A stretch of 64,000 nucleotides of DNA from Vicinamibacterales bacterium (GTDB taxonomy: Bacteria > Acidobacteriota > Vicinamibacteria > Vicinamibacterales > CAVVIG01), in NCBI GenBank assembly GCA_035510155.1, contig DATKHR010000379.1, forward strand, positions 5,273 through 69,272. Direction: 5' to 3'. Positions 8,560-54,958 of this stretch are shown here, piece by piece. Below the pieces are notes generated by a model that saw only the letters and a program-made list of their open reading frames with translations, made no database searches and was not told where the DNA came from. The number at the start of each line of letters is the position of its first letter. Within the stretch, counting starts at the first letter, position 1. The translations under genes and the position numbers were made by a program.

Positions 8560-10083
8560 CTAGGCTGGCTCCGTCTCCTCATCGGCTCGACGCGAGGGCG
8601 CGATGCCGAACGCTTTCATCTTGCGGTACAAATTGCTGCGCTCGACGCCGAGGGCCTCCGCCGTGCGCGACATATTGCCCTGCTGCTCCGCCAGCGTCCG
8701 CAAGATGAGATCGCGCTCGAACCGGTCGCGCGCCTCGTGAAGCGTGAGCCGCTCGGCGCCCGTCTCAGGCACCGCCTGCGATGTATCAGCCGGGCTGCTC
8801 GAGTCGAGAAAGCTCAGGTCCGATGCCGCAATCCGATCCCCAGGCACCATGATCATGAGCCGCTCGATCACGTTGCGGAGCTCGCGGACATTGCCCGGCC
8901 ATGGGTATCGCTGAAGCGCGATCCGCGCGCCGGGCTCGAAGGTCTTGAGCCGCCGGCCGTCTTCCCGCGCGAGCTCCGACATGAAGTGATCGGCGAGGAT
9001 CGGAATGTCGTCCTGACGGTCCCTGAGCGGGGGCACGAAAATCGGAATGACATTGAGGCGGAAGTACAGGTCTTCGCGAAACTGCCCCGCGCGAATCTCC
9101 GACTGGAGGTCCTTATTCGTGGCCGCCAGTACGCGGGCGTCAACCTTGATGCGCGTGGTGCCGCCCACCGCCTCGAGCGTCTGCTCCTGCAGGACCCGCA
9201 GAACCTTCGCCTGTGTTTTCAAGCTCATGTCGCCGATCTCGTCGAGGAAGATGGTCCCTCCGTCCGCGGCCTCGAACTTGCCACGCCGATCCGCAACGGC
9301 TCCAGTGAACGCGCCGCGGACATGGCCGAACAGTTCGCTCTCGATGAGCTCTTCCGGAATGGCGGCGCAGTTGACTTCGACGAACGCGTGGTTGCGCCGC
9401 CGGCTCAGACCGTGAATGGTGCGGGCGACGAGCTCCTTGCCGGTGCCGTTCTCGCCGTAGATCAGCACGCGGCCGTTGGTCGGCGCCGCCATCGCCACCT
9501 GCTCCCGCAGCTGCCGCATGGCGTAGCTGTCCCCGACCATCGTCTGGGCGCGATCCACTTTCGCGCGCAGCGCGCGGTTCTCCTGCTCGAGGCGCCGCTG
9601 ATGGAGCGCGTTGCGGATGACCAGGACAGTCTTTTCCAGGGACAGCGGCTTCTCGACGAAATCGAACGCGCCCATTTTGATCGCCCGAACCGCCGACTCG
9701 ATATTGCCGTGGCCGGAGATGAGCACCACCTGGGCGTCCACCTGCCGTTCCCGCAGCCGCGCGAGCGTCGCGAGGCCGTCCATGCCCGGGAGCCATACGT
9801 CGAGCACGATAAGATCCACGGCGCCGCGCGTAACGCGCTCAAGGCACGCTTCGCCGCTCGACACGGCCTCGACGCCGTACCCTTCGTCGCGCAACACGCC
9901 GCTTAACGCGGACCGGACGCCGGGCTCGTCGTCAACGATGAGGATCGTGGGCTTCACTGGACCATCAACGGCGTGATCCGGGGCTTCGGATTCTGGATTT
10001 GGGGCGTGAGTCGGGATTCGGGATTCGGGATTCGTGCTCGCCGAAAGCTCGGAACCGACTGCCGAATCACTTGCGCTCCGCAA
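8560..10083 (-). CDS. sigma-54-dependent Fis-family response regulator (NtrC/NtrX-like)
   Basis: ORF as given. REC domain (ILIVDDEPGVR..LIVLDVWLPGMDG), AAA+ activator (GENGTGKE, GAFTGA, RVLAATN) and Fis HTH (NMSRTAEALGVERSNLYRKM). TTG 10083 has GGAGG 6 nt upstream, but codons 1-42 are encoded by repeat element A. An alternative in-frame GTG 9957 starts right at the REC domain. Confidence 0.85.
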   Translation of the reverse strand: MRSASDSAVGSELSASTNPESRIPTHAPNPESEAPDHAVDGPVKPTILIVDDEPGVRSALSGVLRDEGYGVEAVSSGEACLERVTRGAVDLIVLDVWLPGMDGLATLARLRERQVDAQVVLISGHGNIESAVRAIKMGAFDFVEKPLSLEKTVLVIRNALHQRRLEQENRALRAKVDRAQTMVGDSYAMRQLREQVAMAAPTNGRVLIYGENGTGKELVARTIHGLSRRRNHAFVEVNCAAIPEELIESELFGHVRGAFTGAVADRRGKFEAADGGTIFLDEIGDMSLKTQAKVLRVLQEQTLEAVGGTTRIKVDARVLAATNKDLQSEIRAGQFREDLYFRLNVIPIFVPPLRDRQDDIPILADHFMSELAREDGRRLKTFEPGARIALQRYPWPGNVRELRNVIERLMIMVPGDRIAASDLSFLDSSSPADTSQAVPETGAERLTLHEARDRFERDLILRTLAEQQGNMSRTAEALGVERSNLYRKMKAFGIAPSRRADEETEPA

Positions 10084-49259: not shown

Positions 49260-51782
49260 CTACTCGGCGCGAAGGGTCGAGAGCGGCTTGTTCCGCAGGA
49301 CGTCGAGACTCGAGAGCACGCCGATGGCGGCCACGAGCATCGACGTGAGGACGACCCCGGCGATGTGCTCGCTCGGGAAGATCCGCCACGGGATCTCGAG
49401 CGCGTATCGGCTGACGCCCCACGTGAGTACGATAGCGCCCAGCGAGCCGACGAGCCCCGCGAGCGATCCGAGGACTCCATATTCCAACAGGAGCATCCGG
49501 GCGATTGTGCGCGTATTGGCGCCCAGCGTCTTGAAGACGGCGGCCTCGTACAGCCGCTGGAACTTTGTCATCGCGACGGCACCGATGAGAATCAACGCCC
49601 CGCTGAAGAGCACCAGACCGCCCACCACCGTGATGGCCAGCGTCACCTTGGACATCACGTCGCGAACGGTCTCGAGAACCTCGCGAAAGTCAATGACCGA
49701 GACATTGGGGAACTTCTCGACGAGATCGTGTTGGAATCGGGCGCGCTCGGTCGGGTCCTGCGGCCCCTTGATCGGCGAGACGAAGGTCTGCGGTACGCGA
49801 TCGAGCGAACCCGGCCGGAAGACAAACATGAAGCCGCCGTTGCGCGATTGGCGCCACTCGACGTCGCGAACGCTCGTCACCCTCGCACTGACCGACTGCC
49901 CGAGGATATCGAAGCGCATCGTGTCCCCGACGTGGATGTTGAACCGCTCGCGAATGCCTCGCTCGATCGAGACTTCCGGGTCCGTCGACGGACCGTTCCA
50001 GAACGCCCCTTCCCGCACCCGCTCGTTCGCCTCGAGGTGGTCACGGTAGGTGATGGTGTATTCACGCGCCAACGACCCGCGCCGGCGAACGTCCTCGACC
50101 CCCTCTATGTCCGTCTGGCGCCCCGACACCCCGGTCACGCGCGCGCGCATCACCGGAATGAGCTGGATTTCCCCCGCCCTGCTGGCGACAAATGCGCGCA
50201 CCCCGTCAGCCTGCCTTGGCTGGATGTCGAGCAGAAACATGTCGGGAGCGTCCTCGGACACCTGGAGCGAGAACTCGCTCAACAGCGTCGCCTGCAGCGA
50301 ACGCACGCCGACGATGAAGAAGGCGCCGAGACCGACCGCCAGCAGAATCACTCTCGTTTGGTTGCCCGGCCGCGATAGGTGCAGCACCGCGTGCCGCAGC
50401 GGAAACGAACGCGAGCTCGCCAGAGGCGACACGAGCGCCACGAGCGCCCGCCCGGCCAGCTGCAACACGAAGGCGAGCCCGGCGAAGCTCGCGCACACGA
50501 TGAGGCCGATTCTGAGCGACGCGGCCTGCCAGGCCGTGATCGCCACGAGCCCGGCCGCGATGGCCACCAGCGCCGCCACGCCGAGCCAATCTCGATGGCG
50601 CCGGACGGCTTCGTCCCGTAGCAGCAGCGATGGCCTGATGAACCTCACCTGCAGCAGCGGCGCGAGCGAGAACAGCAGCGACACGAGCACGCCGATGCCG
50701 ATGCCCTGAAGGGCTGCGCTCCACGCCACACCGTAATGCGCCTGTGCAAAGAGAGACGATGAAGATCCGAGCGCGAGCGGAATCGACGCGACCGCGGCGG
50801 CCGCGAGCGCGACGCCGAGCAGGCTGCCCGCGAGGCCCAGCGCGACGACTTGCAGAATGTAGACGGCGATGATCTGCGCGCTTCTCGATCCCACGCATTT
50901 GAGCACGGCGATGCTGCGAATCTTCTGCAAAATGAACACGCGGGTGACGCTCGAGACGGCGATCCCTCCGAGGATGACGATGACCAGGCCGACCAGACTG
51001 AGATAGTTCTCTGCGCGGTCGAAGTCGCGCCCGACCTGATCCTCGTTCGAGCGGTACGACCGGACGTTGATGAATTCGTCGCGCAACTCCCGTCGGAGCG
51101 CCCTTACCAGCGGATCGATGCGATCGTCGGGGACTTTCGCCTGCAGTTGCCGCCCCGCCCGGCTGCCGAAAGCGAGAAGGCCGGTCGACGGCAGATCCGC
51201 ATAGTCGATCAACATCCGCGGACCGAGGCTGAAACCGCCCACGCCGCGCCCGGGCTCCCTTGCGAGGACAGCCCGGATCGTGAACGCCGTCTGTCCGATG
51301 ACAATCGAATCGCCCACGTTGACCCCGAGCGCGGTCAGCAGTTCGGGCCGTACGATTGCCCCATGTCCTTCGACGAGAGCATGCCCGAACGGCTGATCGC
51401 CCTGCAGCGTCAGGACTCCATACAGTGGAAACCCGGCCTGTACGGCCCTCAACTCCACCATTTTCGCGATCGGCCGCCCGTCGGCCGGCCGCGCCATCGT
51501 CGGCGTCTCGATCGTTTCTGTGCGCGCCGTCGCGCCAGCCTCAGCGAGACGCCGATCGATCGTCGATCGCGCCAGCTCCGACCACTCGCGATTGGTCCCG
51601 ATCGCCACATCGGCGGCGATTAGTGCCTTCGCCTCGGTGCCGAACACGACGCGCGCGCTCTGAATGACCGACCGCAGCGCGACAATGGCGGCGACGCCGA
51701 CGGCGATACAGACGAAGAAGAACAAGAGGCGGCGCCACGAGGCGCGCGTCTCGCGAACGGCCATGCGAAGGACGAATCTCAT
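49260..51782 (-). CDS. ABC transporter permease with duplicated FtsX domains (YbbP-like)
   Basis: ORF as given, 840 aa. Two FtsX-type 4-TM modules. Confidence 0.85.
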   Translation of the reverse strand: MRFVLRMAVRETRASWRRLLFFFVCIAVGVAAIVALRSVIQSARVVFGTEAKALIAADVAIGTNREWSELARSTIDRRLAEAGATARTETIETPTMARPADGRPIAKMVELRAVQAGFPLYGVLTLQGDQPFGHALVEGHGAIVRPELLTALGVNVGDSIVIGQTAFTIRAVLAREPGRGVGGFSLGPRMLIDYADLPSTGLLAFGSRAGRQLQAKVPDDRIDPLVRALRRELRDEFINVRSYRSNEDQVGRDFDRAENYLSLVGLVIVILGGIAVSSVTRVFILQKIRSIAVLKCVGSRSAQIIAVYILQVVALGLAGSLLGVALAAAAVASIPLALGSSSSLFAQAHYGVAWSAALQGIGIGVLVSLLFSLAPLLQVRFIRPSLLLRDEAVRRHRDWLGVAALVAIAAGLVAITAWQAASLRIGLIVCASFAGLAFVLQLAGRALVALVSPLASSRSFPLRHAVLHLSRPGNQTRVILLAVGLGAFFIVGVRSLQATLLSEFSLQVSEDAPDMFLLDIQPRQADGVRAFVASRAGEIQLIPVMRARVTGVSGRQTDIEGVEDVRRRGSLAREYTITYRDHLEANERVREGAFWNGPSTDPEVSIERGIRERFNIHVGDTMRFDILGQSVSARVTSVRDVEWRQSRNGGFMFVFRPGSLDRVPQTFVSPIKGPQDPTERARFQHDLVEKFPNVSVIDFREVLETVRDVMSKVTLAITVVGGLVLFSGALILIGAVAMTKFQRLYEAAVFKTLGANTRTIARMLLLEYGVLGSLAGLVGSLGAIVLTWGVSRYALEIPWRIFPSEHIAGVVLTSMLVAAIGVLSSLDVLRNKPLSTLRAE

Positions 51783-52627
51783 TGCGGATTGCGGACTGCG
51801 GATTCCACCCCAGGGCGGCTGCCGCCCTGGGGGCCCCGGGATTGCGGACTGATTGCAGGTTGTGGATTGATAGCCGATTGCGGATTGCGGTTTGCCGACT
51901 GGGGATTGGCCGAGAACCGCGCTCCAGAATCCGCAGTCCGCACTCCGGGATCCGCAATAGAAAGGGTGCTGTCGATAACGCGCCCGTCGCGCAGGACGAG
52001 CGTGCCGTCGGCCATCGCCGCCAGCTCCGCGTCATGCGTCACGAGGACGATCGTGCTTCCCCGCCGGGCATGCACGGTCCGCAAGAGATCCATGATGTGC
52101 CGGCCGTTGCTGCTGTCGAGATTGCCGGTCGGCTCGTCCGCCAGGACGATCGATGGATCGTTGGCCAGGGCGCGCGCGAGCGCGACGCGTTGCTGCTCGC
52201 CGCCTGACAGCTGCGACGGGTAGTGATGGGACCGTCCGCGCAATCCGACCTCGTCGAGCAGCGCTTCCGTTCGCCGGCGCGTATCGCCGACGCCGGCGAT
52301 TTCCATGGGCACTGCGATGTTCTCGTAGGCCGTAAGCGACGGAATCAGGTGAAAGAACTGGAACACGAAGCCGATCTTCTCGCCGCGCAGCTTCGCGAGC
52401 GAGTCCTCGTCGAGGCGCGTGATGTCGACGCCGTCAATGACGACCTGCCCCGACGTCGGCGCATCGAGGCCGGCAATCAGCCCGAGCAAGGTGGACTTGC
52501 CGCTTCCCGACGGCCCGACCACGGCGGCAAACTGACCCTTGGGAATCTCCAGTGTCAACGGATGCAGAATCGTGAGCGGTTCGCTGCCGCTCATGACGGT
52601 TTTCGAGACCTCGCGCAACTCGATCAT
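51779..52627 (-). CDS. ABC transporter ATP-binding protein (YbbA/LolD-like) with repeat-encoded C-terminal tail
   Basis: ORF 51779..52684(-) trimmed to ATG 52627, an ATGA overlap with the upstream stop. Contains [24 protein letters not shown] and [10 protein letters not shown]. The last 60 or so codons are encoded by element C. Confidence 0.88.
   Translation of the reverse strand: MIELREVSKTVMSGSEPLTILHPLTLEIPKGQFAAVVGPSGSGKSTLLGLIAGLDAPTSGQVVIDGVDITRLDEDSLAKLRGEKIGFVFQFFHLIPSLTAYENIAVPMEIAGVGDTRRRTEALLDEVGLRGRSHHYPSQLSGGEQQRVALARALANDPSIVLADEPTGNLDSSNGRHIMDLLRTVHARRGSTIVLVTHDAELAAMADGTLVLRDGRVIDSTLSIADPGVRTADSGARFSANPQSANRNPQSAINPQPAISPQSRGPQGGSRPGVESAVRNPQ
51783..51958. repeat. heptamer-periodic inverted repeat element C (ATTGCGG-type units, internal perfect hairpin, CCGCAAT-type units)
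   Basis: Read directly. ATTGCGG/ACTGCGG-like units run from 51783. The hairpin is CCCCAGGGCGG-ctg-CCGCCCTGGGG (51808-51832). The complementary arm AATCCGC AGTCCGC ACTCCGG GATCCGC AAT lies at 51928-51958. Confidence 0.85.
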
Positions 52628-53343
52628 GATCCAGAACGCCCCTCGCCCTTTTGCTCCTCCGCCAGCGGTTTGAGCACGCGCCACACATTGTCGGCCACGA
52701 CGCGCGCACCGGCGGCAGTCGGATGAATCCCATCTGGCTGATTCAGTTGGTCAATCCCGGCGACGTTCCACAGCAGGAACGGCACGAACGGGATTCGGTA
52801 TTGCTCGGCAAGCGCCGGGTACACCCTGTGAAACGAGACGGTGTAGTCGCGACCGTAGTTCGGCGGCGCCTCCATCCCCGCCAGGATCACTTGCACGTGC
52901 CGGGCTTGTGCGCGCTCGATGATCTCTGACAGATTGCGCTTCAACGCCTCCGGCGGCAGCCCCCGCAGGCCATCGTTTCCGCCGAGCGCCACGACGAGAA
53001 TCCGTACGTCACCCTGAAGCGCCCAGTCGAGTCGGGACAGGCCGCCGGCGGATGTGTCACCCGAGACGCCGGCGTTGACGACCTCGTAGTCGAGCCCCTC
53101 GCCCTTGAGACGCTGTTGCAGCAAGCTTGGGTACGCCTGATCGACCGGCAGGCCGAGCCCGGCGGTCAGGCTGTCGCCGAGAATGACGATTCTCGGCAGC
53201 GGCTTTGCCCGCGCCTCGGTGCTTGTGGCCCTCGCGTTATCGGTGCCAGCCGACTTGTTGTCGTGTGCCTCGTCGCGACCTCCGCACGCCACTATCGAGA
53301 TCGTGGCCAAAAGCAACGCCGCCGCCCGCAGTCGATGCGCCAT
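52624..53343 (-). CDS. SGNH/GDSL arylesterase-thioesterase (TesA-like) lipoprotein
   Basis: ORF 52624..53460(-) trimmed to ATG 53343 (MAHRLRAAALLLATISIVAC lipobox). Contains ILGDSLTAG, GGNDGLRG and DGIHP. Confidence 0.8.
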   Translation of the reverse strand: MAHRLRAAALLLATISIVACGGRDEAHDNKSAGTDNARATSTEARAKPLPRIVILGDSLTAGLGLPVDQAYPSLLQQRLKGEGLDYEVVNAGVSGDTSAGGLSRLDWALQGDVRILVVALGGNDGLRGLPPEALKRNLSEIIERAQARHVQVILAGMEAPPNYGRDYTVSFHRVYPALAEQYRIPFVPFLLWNVAGIDQLNQPDGIHPTAAGARVVADNVWRVLKPLAEEQKGEGRSGS

Positions 53344-53398
53344 TCCCCTCTTGAAGTATTCTACCGGGATGGCTGCGGAAGCTGCCGCAGAAGGTCGA

Positions 53399-54958
53399 AT
53401 GACGAGCCTCGCCACACTCTCCGAGCAGCTCGCCGCTGGCGAGAGCCGGTCGATCGTCACCGAACCGGTGACGCTCGTGATCTTCGGCGGCGGTGGCGAT
53501 CTCGCTCATCGCAAGCTCCTGCCGGCGCTCTACAACCTTCACCTGGATGGGTTGCTGCCGCCGCGTGTCGCTATCGTCGGTGTCGGCCGGAGCGCCATTA
53601 CGGATGAGGCCTACCGCGCCTTCGCGAAAGACGGCATCAGCCGGTTCTCACGACGCCCGGTCGACGAGCGCGGGTGGCAGACGTTTGCTGCCTCGATCTT
53701 CTTCGCGACCGCCACCATCGACGAAGACAACCATGGGTTCGCCTCCCTCGGTGCCCGGCTGGACGTCATCGAGCACGAGCGCGGACTGACTGGCAATCGC
53801 GTTTACTATCTGGCGATTCCGCCGACGCTCATCGCGCCAACCGTCAACCAGCTCGATCGCGCCCGCTTCCTTCCGCGGGCGGTCACTCGCGTCGATCACC
53901 CTTTGCCGTTCGCCAGGTTGATCGTCGAAAAGCCGATCGGCCGGGATCTCGAAAGCGCTCGCGCCATCAACGACGCCGTGGCGCGCGTCTTCGACGAGCG
54001 CCAGATCTACCGAATCGACCACTACCTCGGCAAGGAGACCGTTCAGAACATCCTCGTCCTCCGGTTCGCAAACAGCATCTTCGAGCCGCTGCTCAACCAG
54101 AAATACGTCGACCACGTGCAGATCACCGTCGCCGAGGAAGAAGGGGTGGGAACGCGCGCGGGATATTACGAGGAAGCCGGCGCGCTGCGCGACATGGTGC
54201 AGAACCATATTCTCCAGCTGCTCTCGCTCATGGCCCTCGAGCCGCCGCGCTCTCTGGACGCGGATGTCGTTCGCGACGAGAAACTCGAAGTTCTCCTATC
54301 GCTGCGTCCCATTGATGGCGATGCCGTTGACGCCAACGTCGTGCGCGGCCAGTATGGGGCCGGATTCCAGGTCGGGAAGCCCGTGCGGGGCTATCGCGAA
54401 GAGGAGAAGGTCAAGCCGGATTCCCGAACGGAAACCTTTGTCGCGATGCAGGCTTTCATCGACAACTGGCGGTGGGCGGGCGTTCCTTTCTTCCTCCGAA
54501 CGGGCAAGCGCCTGCCGAAGCGCGCGAGCGAGATCTCGATCCACTTGAAGGCCGTCCCCCCAATCCTCTTCAATCGGCCGCCCGACGGCCATCTCGATCC
54601 GAATGTCCTCTCCATTCGCATTCAGCCCGACGAGGGGTTCGCTCTCGGCATCAGCTCAAAGATCCCCGGCCCCCGCGTCCGCATCTATCCAGTGCAGATG
54701 GATTTCCACTACGGCAGCACGTTCGGCGCGTCGTCGCCTGAGGCATACGAGCGGCTCTTGCTCGACGTGATGGCCGGCGACGCGACCCTGTTCATGCGGC
54801 GGGATGCCGTCGAAGCCGCGTGGCGCTGGGTGATGCCGATCCTCAACCGGTGGGAGGCTTCGACGGATCCCATTCCAACGTATCCGGCCGGCACCTGGGG
54901 ACCGGCCGAAGCCGATCGGCTTATTCAGTCGACGGGGCGAGAATGGCGGCCGCTGTAG
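53399..54958 (+). CDS. zwf: glucose-6-phosphate dehydrogenase
   Basis: ORF 53183..54958(+) trimmed to ATG 53399 (MTSLATL; alternative 53369). Contains IFGGGGDLAHRKL and YRIDHYLGKE. Confidence 0.92.
   Translation: MTSLATLSEQLAAGESRSIVTEPVTLVIFGGGGDLAHRKLLPALYNLHLDGLLPPRVAIVGVGRSAITDEAYRAFAKDGISRFSRRPVDERGWQTFAASIFFATATIDEDNHGFASLGARLDVIEHERGLTGNRVYYLAIPPTLIAPTVNQLDRARFLPRAVTRVDHPLPFARLIVEKPIGRDLESARAINDAVARVFDERQIYRIDHYLGKETVQNILVLRFANSIFEPLLNQKYVDHVQITVAEEEGVGTRAGYYEEAGALRDMVQNHILQLLSLMALEPPRSLDADVVRDEKLEVLLSLRPIDGDAVDANVVRGQYGAGFQVGKPVRGYREEEKVKPDSRTETFVAMQAFIDNWRWAGVPFFLRTGKRLPKRASEISIHLKAVPPILFNRPPDGHLDPNVLSIRIQPDEGFALGISSKIPGPRVRIYPVQMDFHYGSTFGASSPEAYERLLLDVMAGDATLFMRRDAVEAAWRWVMPILNRWEASTDPIPTYPAGTWGPAEADRLIQSTGREWRPL

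Follow-up and report, generated by a model that had tools for sequence, protein, structure and literature searches.

A 176-nt composite repeat, here called Element C, lies at the junction between a YbbA-like ATP-binding cassette (ABC) ATPase gene and a YbbP-like permease gene in a 64,000-nt window of a Vicinamibacterales genome, and forms the end of the ATPase open reading frame (ORF). We put at roughly 70% the probability that Element C is a repeat of non-coding type that now sits inside the ORF, is read as a disordered tail without function and leaves the permease strictly coupled to the ATPase through an ATGA stop/start overlap. The window corresponds to C379:5273-69272 of a 5.5-Mb, 64.7% GC metagenome-assembled genome (MAG) in 413 contigs (genome G000, 95% complete), and its genes have close relatives in soil MAGs that bear the label Acidobacteriota/Vicinamibacterales. 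The feature is real and had been described correctly. As selfish or slippage DNA that a coding sequence tolerates, it is more ordinary than a first, sequence-only reading had suggested, with an overlap and tails that are ancestral and repeats that recur at the site, yet it is also richer, being composite and carrying a frame-neutral module. The features on which the argument draws are these:

51779-52627, minus strand: YbbA-like ABC ATPase ORF, 282 aa including the repeat-coded tail; the start MIELREVSK is kept in orthologues
51974-52627, minus strand: ABC domain of the ATPase itself, residues 1-218 (family models stop at 216-220; codon log-odds +0.48; predicted local distance difference test (pLDDT) 70-92)
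51783-51958, minus strand: Element C, ATPase residues 224-282 (Tandem Repeats Finder (TRF), inverted repeats, fold, codon log-odds, pLDDT)
51911-51958, minus strand: 5' arm of Element C, antisense-type units (TGCGGAT, TGCGGAC and the like), coding ..IADPGVRTADSGARF.. (inverted repeats, fold)
51844-51907, minus strand: middle array of degenerate AATCCGC-type units, coding ..NPQSANRNPQSAINPQPAISPQ.. (TRF, inverted repeats)
51805-51843, minus strand: nested 39-nt (13-codon) module, AATCCCGGGGC plus hairpin plus TGG, coding ..SRGPQGGSRPGV.. (copies elsewhere in the genome, 39-nt tandem spacing)
51808-51832, no strand assigned: GC hairpin CCCCAGGGCGGC-A-GCCGCCCTGGGG (inverted repeat I10, compensatory changes)
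51783-51804, minus strand: 3' units AATCCGC AGTCCGC AATCCGC A, coding ESAVRNPQ; closing stem of the predicted fold (sequence, inverted repeats, fold)
51779-51782, minus strand: ATGA, permease start 51782-51780 overlapping ATPase stop 51781-51779 (sequence; ancestral)
49260-51782, minus strand: YbbP-like permease, 840 aa, MacB_PCD and two FtsX domains (ORF, family models)
52624-53460, minus strand: TesA-like GDSL lipase gene (Pfam Lipase_GDSL_2, 1.2e-29; NCBIfam TesA model, 3.6e-45)

Element C is read through as the ATPase tail

The Pfam ABC_tran and NCBIfam YbbA/LolD models stop at residue ~218 (near 51974), and the ATPase frame is stop-free from there to the TGA at 51781-51779, as the sequence-only reading had it; the resulting C-terminal tail reads ..IDSTLSIADPGVRTADSGARFSANPQSANRNPQSAINPQPAISPQSRGPQGGSRPGVESAVRNPQ*. 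The period of seven noticed at the same time is borne out by TRF arrays at 51781-51804 and 51876-51908 and by a lag-7 nucleotide identity in the tail of 0.48, against 0.23 at lags 5, 6, 8 and 9. The end of the element had been given as AATCCGC AATCCGC AATGA, which is right for the last two units, but the full 3' end is AATCCGC AGTCCGC AATCCGC AATGA. Similarly, the hairpin is perfect and lies where it was said to lie, while its arms (51808-51819 and 51821-51832, 100% complementary) measure 12 nt each and not 11. The 5' arm pairs with both the 3' units and the middle array (inverted repeats I1, 31 nt, 81%, and I2, 21 nt, 95%). Folding on the minus strand, which had been proposed as a check, gives -95.1 kcal/mol for Element C (z = -5.0 with dinucleotide shuffles, 0/200 as good), with a predicted closing helix in which the 5' arm is paired with the last units and which holds both the permease AUG and the ATPase UGA. 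No Rfam family matches 51500-52200 at E <= 1. An intrinsic terminator could be ruled out, as the hairpin runs into UGGAAUCC instead of a U-run.

Element C is identical in four other metagenome contigs (3.4-8.2 kb), which are colinear with the window and 99.7% identical to it, so the open frame is not a sequencing or assembly error. The possibility, raised at the outset, of an error hiding a stop near 51960 is thus very unlikely. In a MAG of 413 contigs, where repeats are prone to misassembly, one might suspect that a repeat had been collapsed or made chimeric, or that a stop had been missed; given these contigs, and related elements at the same junction in unrelated assemblies, an artefact is hardly credible.

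All three sense frames of Element C are open: the first stops at the ATGA, another joins the permease in a 923-codon open frame and the third overruns by 80 codons. Neither the heptamer units nor the 39-nt module holds a stop codon in any sense frame. These open frames, and a unit length not divisible by three, are what one would expect of a phase-variable contingency locus in which array slippage toggles between coupled pair, ATPase-permease fusion and 80-codon overrun. However, slippage is disfavoured because the units are degenerate and perfect tandem copies few, and no difference in length is seen among the four contigs, which come from different samples; we regard such switching as highly improbable.

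The tail is repeat DNA, not ATPase. In a home-made codon log-odds model, for which 506 long ORFs of the genome served as training set, the ATPase domain scores +0.48 and the permease +0.39. The values for the three frames of the tail are -0.25, -0.31 and -0.40, so that it has no coding signature. AlphaFold2 (17 sequences) models the ATPase domain well and gives residues 225-280 a pLDDT below 50 without secondary structure, and no Pfam or NCBIfam model covers the tail. The ATPase product would carry a low-complexity, disordered tail of 59-64 residues with no protein-level function, as modelling and sequence suggest. The sequence of residues 224-282 includes NPQSANR and GPQGGSRPGVESAVR.

The ATPase-permease junction in relatives

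The junction was compared across 98 orthologous loci, from the genomes of 19 relatives and from 79 further species. A -4 overlap (ATGA or GTGA) is present in 61 of them, a -1 overlap in 6 and a small gap in 24, and E. coli ybbA and ybbP also overlap by ATGA. The overlap is therefore ancient and predates Element C. The permease ATG at 51782 does overlap the ATPase stop as had been described, and the permease N-terminus MRFVLRMAVRETRASW is kept in relatives with changes at third positions only, which confirms the start codon. What does not survive is the idea that the last repeat unit supplied this start codon and so formed the ATGA, since the overlap is found in those 61 loci without the element and in E. 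coli. AATCCGCAATCCGCAATGA does recur at C88:66062 and C178:5527, but both sites are in non-coding DNA, and we rejected the last unit as origin of the start codon. The match on C178 extends to ..ATGAGATT; arrays end in AATGA three times.

Orthologous ATPases had been expected to stop near ..DGRV. In fact, most carry an unconserved tail after ..LRDGRVV, of 0 to ~70 residues with a median of 12. Among the 120 nearest ATPase proteins from metagenomes, the two closest (92% and 90% identity) have short tails without repeats. Heptamer-coded tails are found in at least five other lineages: that of P0004 ends ..SPVRNPQ*, that of P0003 ..SAILNPQ* and that of P0009 in ..RIPQ* (..ADRGLRIAERQSSNPNPQPAIRIPQ*), and those of P0010 and P0035 are of the antisense type, ..DRGLRI... 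At the DNA level, two of these (L101 and L103) have inverted heptamer arrays ending ..TCCGCAATCCGCAATGA, without the GC hairpin. The proposal of an insertion that preserved translational coupling at a conserved junction thus stands as far as the 4-nt overlap is concerned, which was kept; the element is not a single insertion but a composite, and arrays occupy the same place in those five lineages. Orthologues with a similar tail, which would have counted against the first interpretation, do exist in part, in the form of shared ..RNPQ* ends, but what they share is repeat DNA and not a conserved protein domain.

These data also bear on the view that the tail is a functional protein segment built from repeats, for example a flexible linker or a motif contacting TesA or the permease. 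Most orthologues have tails and the ..RNPQ end is common to several lineages. However, the amino acids are not conserved, codon usage is non-coding-like in every frame, disorder is predicted and E. coli YbbA has no tail; the common end is accounted for by a DNA unit that they share, AATCCGCAATGA, and this unit is present at two non-coding sites too. A functional segment is very unlikely in our judgement.

Because heptamer and other repeats recur at the junction in relatives, the stretch between the end of the ATPase domain and the overlap acts as a general dumping ground for repeat DNA, which is read in frame to the fixed stop.

A different repeat, ..PLVLSSSSLDY(A/V)RDDPE..KxEPxR*, fills the ATPase tail in at least 10 proteins of other Vicinamibacterales lineages (L021, P0062, P0075, P0083, P0084, P0090, P0094, P0106, P0107 and P0114), and P0103 has a tandem EEREPLRV repeat there. 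Four records titled 'uncultured Bifidobacterium/Bifidobacteriaceae' (L029, L039, L042 and L055) hold an ATPase 72-82% identical to that of the window and are probably mislabelled MAG records.

A heptamer family across the genome

TRF finds 209 period-7 arrays (at least 3 copies) at 190 loci of the genome, with AATCCGC, AATCCCG, AAGGACC and AGCCATC as the main units; AATCCGC is the commonest, with 33 arrays. In a codon-based census, 124 of the 184 assessable loci (about two thirds) have no coding run-in, and ~37 (about a fifth) are read through inside ORFs. The census is noisy and gives a rough proportion only, with at least one wrong "tail" call, C296:8982, which belongs to the leader of rpsF on the other strand. 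This CAATCCT/CAATCCG array (C296:8982-9006) lies 9 nt upstream of the opposite-strand rpsF start, beside its GGAG. No description of heptamer repeats in Acidobacteriota was found in the collection of papers searched.

The 39-nt GC-hairpin module

The module nested in Element C has the unit AATCCCGGGGY plus a 25-nt hairpin plus TGG, that is 39 nt or 13 codons. The hairpin and its immediate flanks recur in the genome at 89-93% identity over 43-57 nt (C237, C369 and elsewhere), and tandem pairs spaced exactly 39 nt occur in ThiL, on C385 and in G040, a genome of another genus. Deleting 51843-51805 would leave the heptamer array of Element C uninterrupted; since the arrays of L101 and L103 are free of the module, this points to the module as a later insertion into an older array.

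With nhmmer (E < 1e-3) there are 14 copies in the genome, at least 11 of them inside ORFs, and the module is in frame in at least 10 other proteins. The hosts are an MsbA-like ABC transporter, ThiL (twice), NuoN, two FtsX-type permeases, three secreted proteins, in which the module sits directly behind the signal peptide, and C-terminal tails. In the MsbA-like transporter (ORF C237:7974-9815), the module and AATCCGC units are in frame at C237:8948-9025, in the linker between transmembrane and nucleotide-binding domains (..DPQSQGPHGGTRRGVESAIRNIQ..); genus relatives have no module there but heptamer-coded peptides of varying length (for example NPQSAIRNPQSAIRN and DCGLRTEDCG), and outgroups have none. 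In the ThiL-like gene, C237:14684-14785 holds two tandem modules in frame in the middle of the kinase (thiamine-monophosphate kinase; ..NPGVPTAAPAVGWNPGGPTATPAVGWNSQ..) that are absent from 9 relatives. The copies in NuoN, in the two permeases (of FtsX/ADOP type) and in the three secreted proteins are found at C413:12942-12979, C34:35930-36002, C70:30253-30297, C369:23234-23312, C18:42499-42578 and C329:9972-10022.

The module is read in all three frames and in both orientations (QGGSRPGVE, PTAAPAVGW, PRRHRRWGG and antisense readings), which argues against a role at the protein level. Compensatory changes do maintain the stem itself: when 12 copies are compared, pairing holds in 94.7% of cells and 3 pairs have changed on both sides, and the covariation score is reached by 0/500 shuffles.

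A strict pattern finds the module in this genome only, among 31 relatives. Specificity to the species was nevertheless rejected: once relaxed at two stem positions, the pattern gives matches in 23 of 301 genomes from the order (18 of 120 genera), and a reversed control pattern gives none; it is an order-wide, patchy family. The highest number per genome, 23 copies, is found in G277, from another family of the order, where 5 of 12 examined copies are in frame within ORFs. In G277, the module stands between CCCTCAAG octamer arrays instead of heptamers (L145, L147, L148, L150 and L151). In G244 (L153, L155 and L156) and G134 (L157 and L158), it lies within longer repeats with near-identical flanks of at least 45 nt, possibly larger mobile elements that carry the hairpin.

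As regards a miniature inverted-repeat transposable element (MITE) with its target-site duplication, AATCC stands on both sides of the module but equals the unit of the host array. No match to the Y1/RAYT (REP-associated tyrosine) transposase family (PF01797) is found in the genome, while control genomes respond; a parent insertion sequence was looked for only as Y1. We suggest, at somewhat below even odds, that Vicinamibacterales have in the module (GGGGY-CCCCAsnGCGGC-A-sCCGCnsTGGGG-TGG) an element not described before, mobile or copy-spreading, that targets short-unit tandem arrays (AATCC-type heptamers, or the octamers of G277) and spreads without a RAYT-type transposase. Without a stop in any of the six frames, and with a length divisible by three, it would survive in genes and add inserts or tails of 13 residues. 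If so, a free-living bacterium would have its own counterpart to the palindromic elements of Rickettsia, and this would spread by a new mechanism, not known so far. In any case, genes of abundant, little-studied soil Acidobacteriota hold in it a family of palindromic repeats that is frame-neutral.

Proposed origin of the tail and coupling of the permease

Taken together, the comparisons suggest the following course. With the ATPase stop fixed within the ancestral overlap, and with units free of stops, any DNA that accumulated at the junction would be translated. The heptamer arrays probably arose first, because they are common to other lineages, and the frame-neutral 39-nt module would have been inserted later in this species. 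A 4-nt stop/start overlap may thus act as a trap, in which stop-free repeat DNA that lands or expands there must be translated. Repeats caught in it would become protein tails. New C-terminal sequence could arise simply in this way, and annotation could end up with inflated ORFs.

The structure of the mRNA would also matter for the permease. The mean probability of being unpaired over positions -15 to +5 of the permease start is 0.04, compared with 0.16-0.51 in ten other loci including E. coli. No purine-rich Shine-Dalgarno sequence is left upstream of this start; E. coli, L003 and L005 have one. With the start in the closing helix and no Shine-Dalgarno sequence, independent initiation would be blocked, as the predicted mRNA stem buries the permease AUG. 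On models of coupling by RNA unfolding and by reinitiation (PMC12548453), a ribosome translating the tail would melt the stem and reinitiate at the ATGA, and the permease would be made only then. Permease translation would probably depend on ribosomes arriving from the ATPase, a strict translational coupling that possibly keeps permease output below ATPase output. The inserted RNA structure thus appears to enforce coupling in a transporter that needs unequal subunit amounts.

An alternative is that Element C is a selected regulatory RNA, which adjusts the ratio of ATPase to permease or makes the mRNA more stable, with the translated tail as a by-product; a YbbA2-YbbP1 complex would need ~2:1. 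The unusually sequestered start site, the z-score of the fold, the hairpin stem maintained by compensatory changes across copies and the identity of Element C in the four contigs all speak for it. The model of translational coupling by RNA unfolding is also an established one (PMC12548453). On the other hand, the nearest relatives manage without Element C, and modules sit mid-protein at unrelated sites, in all frames and both orientations, which implies spread regardless of local function. In addition, the contigs diverge by 0.3% only, so identity over 180 nt is uninformative on constraint. We consider selection for a regulatory RNA unlikely.

Returning to Element C as a non-coding-type repeat read as a functionless tail, it is important to note what weighs against this interpretation. 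The nearest ATPase relatives, P0001 (92% identical) and L002 (88%), have no heptamers, so the arrays may have been gained repeatedly, or gained and then lost by decay. The neutrality of the tail would follow from its lack of conservation, and both its translation and transcription of the locus are predictions from the DNA. Furthermore, the folding energy of the region from -200 to +30, -102.7, is ordinary among GC-rich loci of this kind (-91 to -122); what stands out, by in silico folding, is solely how far the start site is sequestered, and the mRNA-structure part is therefore put forward as a hypothesis.

Three chained genes

On the minus strand, the TesA-like GDSL hydrolase, the ABC ATPase and the permease follow one another head to tail, and both junctions are ATGA overlaps. 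The TesA-like TGA overlaps the ATPase ATG at 52627-52624, so that all three genes are chained; the ORF of the ATPase as such spans 51779-52684, with the conserved ATG within it at 52627. Among NCBIfam models, LolD/YbbA fits the ATPase best and YbbP the permease, with all scores below the equivalog cut-offs: the YbbA model gives 224.3 bits (cut-off 336) and the YbbP model 296.9 bits (cut-off 999), the latter over its full length (8-832). The ATPase and the permease thus fall short of equivalog-level membership in the YbbA/YbbP/TesA type VII ABC system. The neighbourhood is that of the system, with a TesA-like hydrolase, an ATPase and a double-FtsX permease, ATPase and permease overlapping; the resemblance to E. 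coli that had been noticed from the sequence is real by family models.

One metagenome contig, L131 (Ga0318520_10010250), is otherwise 99.7-99.8% identical to the window and has no equivalent of the 90 nt (30 codons) at 52009-52098. This gap is inside the ATPase domain, with ~9 nt overlap at the joint, and represents a natural deletion variant or an assembly slip.

Comparison with known systems

None of these findings overturns current understanding. Repeats at gene junctions are reportedly represented in mycobacteria by MIRUs (mycobacterial interspersed repetitive units; Supply et al. 1997). Where they lie at operon junctions, MIRUs preserve -4 (ATGA-type) coupling with the gene downstream, and little expression is lost by their insertion (PMC12548453). 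The junction with Element C likewise keeps a -4 overlap with the downstream start (ATGA, 51782-51779). However, a MIRU has its own short ORF coupled at both ends, whereas Element C is a tail fused to the upstream ORF. Copy-number variation of the variable-number tandem repeat type is not seen for Element C in the four 99.7%-identical contigs, and it has no sequence similarity to MIRU.

For repeats inside genes, a close case is that of the Rickettsia palindromic elements of Ogata et al. 2000. These small palindromic repeats are found in frame in many unrelated genes at permissive sites (reviewed in PMC10969869). The 39-nt module is also in frame in unrelated genes and is absent from the MsbA-like and ThiL proteins of relatives. 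The Rickettsia elements, at ~100-150 bp, specify a conserved peptide in a single frame, whereas the module has 39 nt and is read in any frame or orientation; its host is a free-living soil acidobacterium, and it is tied to short-unit tandem arrays.

Repetitive extragenic palindromes (REP) and bacterial interspersed mosaic elements (BIME) are GC-rich imperfect palindromes of ~25-35 nt, extragenic and present in many copies per genome, and are associated with RAYT transposases. The module resembles them as a GC palindrome in many copies with a stem that compensatory changes maintain, but most of its copies are intragenic and no Y1/RAYT transposase is detectable in the genome.

The gene set has its counterpart in the E. 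coli YbbAP-TesA type VII ABC system, in which an ATPase and a double-FtsX permease stand beside a TesA-type GDSL hydrolase (PMC12646458). The same set is found here, with ATPase and permease overlapping by ATGA. However, the tesA-like gene is co-directional and coupled, whereas E. coli tesA is divergent from ybbA, and E. coli YbbA (228 aa) lacks the tail of the window ATPase (282 aa).

For the arrays themselves, comparable cases are the heptameric simple sequence repeats known from Xanthomonas (unit GGGAATC) and from Nostoc (unit GGGGA[C/T]T), in which 7-nt units stand in tandem at dispersed sites of high-GC genomes (Rehm et al. 2015, PMC4692102). They concentrate within ~50 nt of ORF ends, where some overlap stop codons; some form inverted pairs, most are transcribed, and they are under-represented on the coding strand of ORFs (PMC4692102). 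Element C likewise has tandem 7-nt units, belongs to a family at many genomic loci and adjoins a stop/start overlap, that is, an ORF end. Its unit, AATCCGC/GCGGATT, differs in having no GGG run, so that the folding of four or more G-tract units into a G-quadruplex, the property studied in those repeats, is not to be expected; another array of the window, GGGATTC at 10011-10034, does hold a GGG run. Also unlike the Xanthomonas and Nostoc repeats, its arrays are degenerate, joined to a GC-hairpin module and wholly inside an ORF. Altogether, these comparisons place the arrays and the module, in our analysis, with the heptameric simple sequence repeats and with MIRU- and Rickettsia palindromic element-like elements, as further cases.

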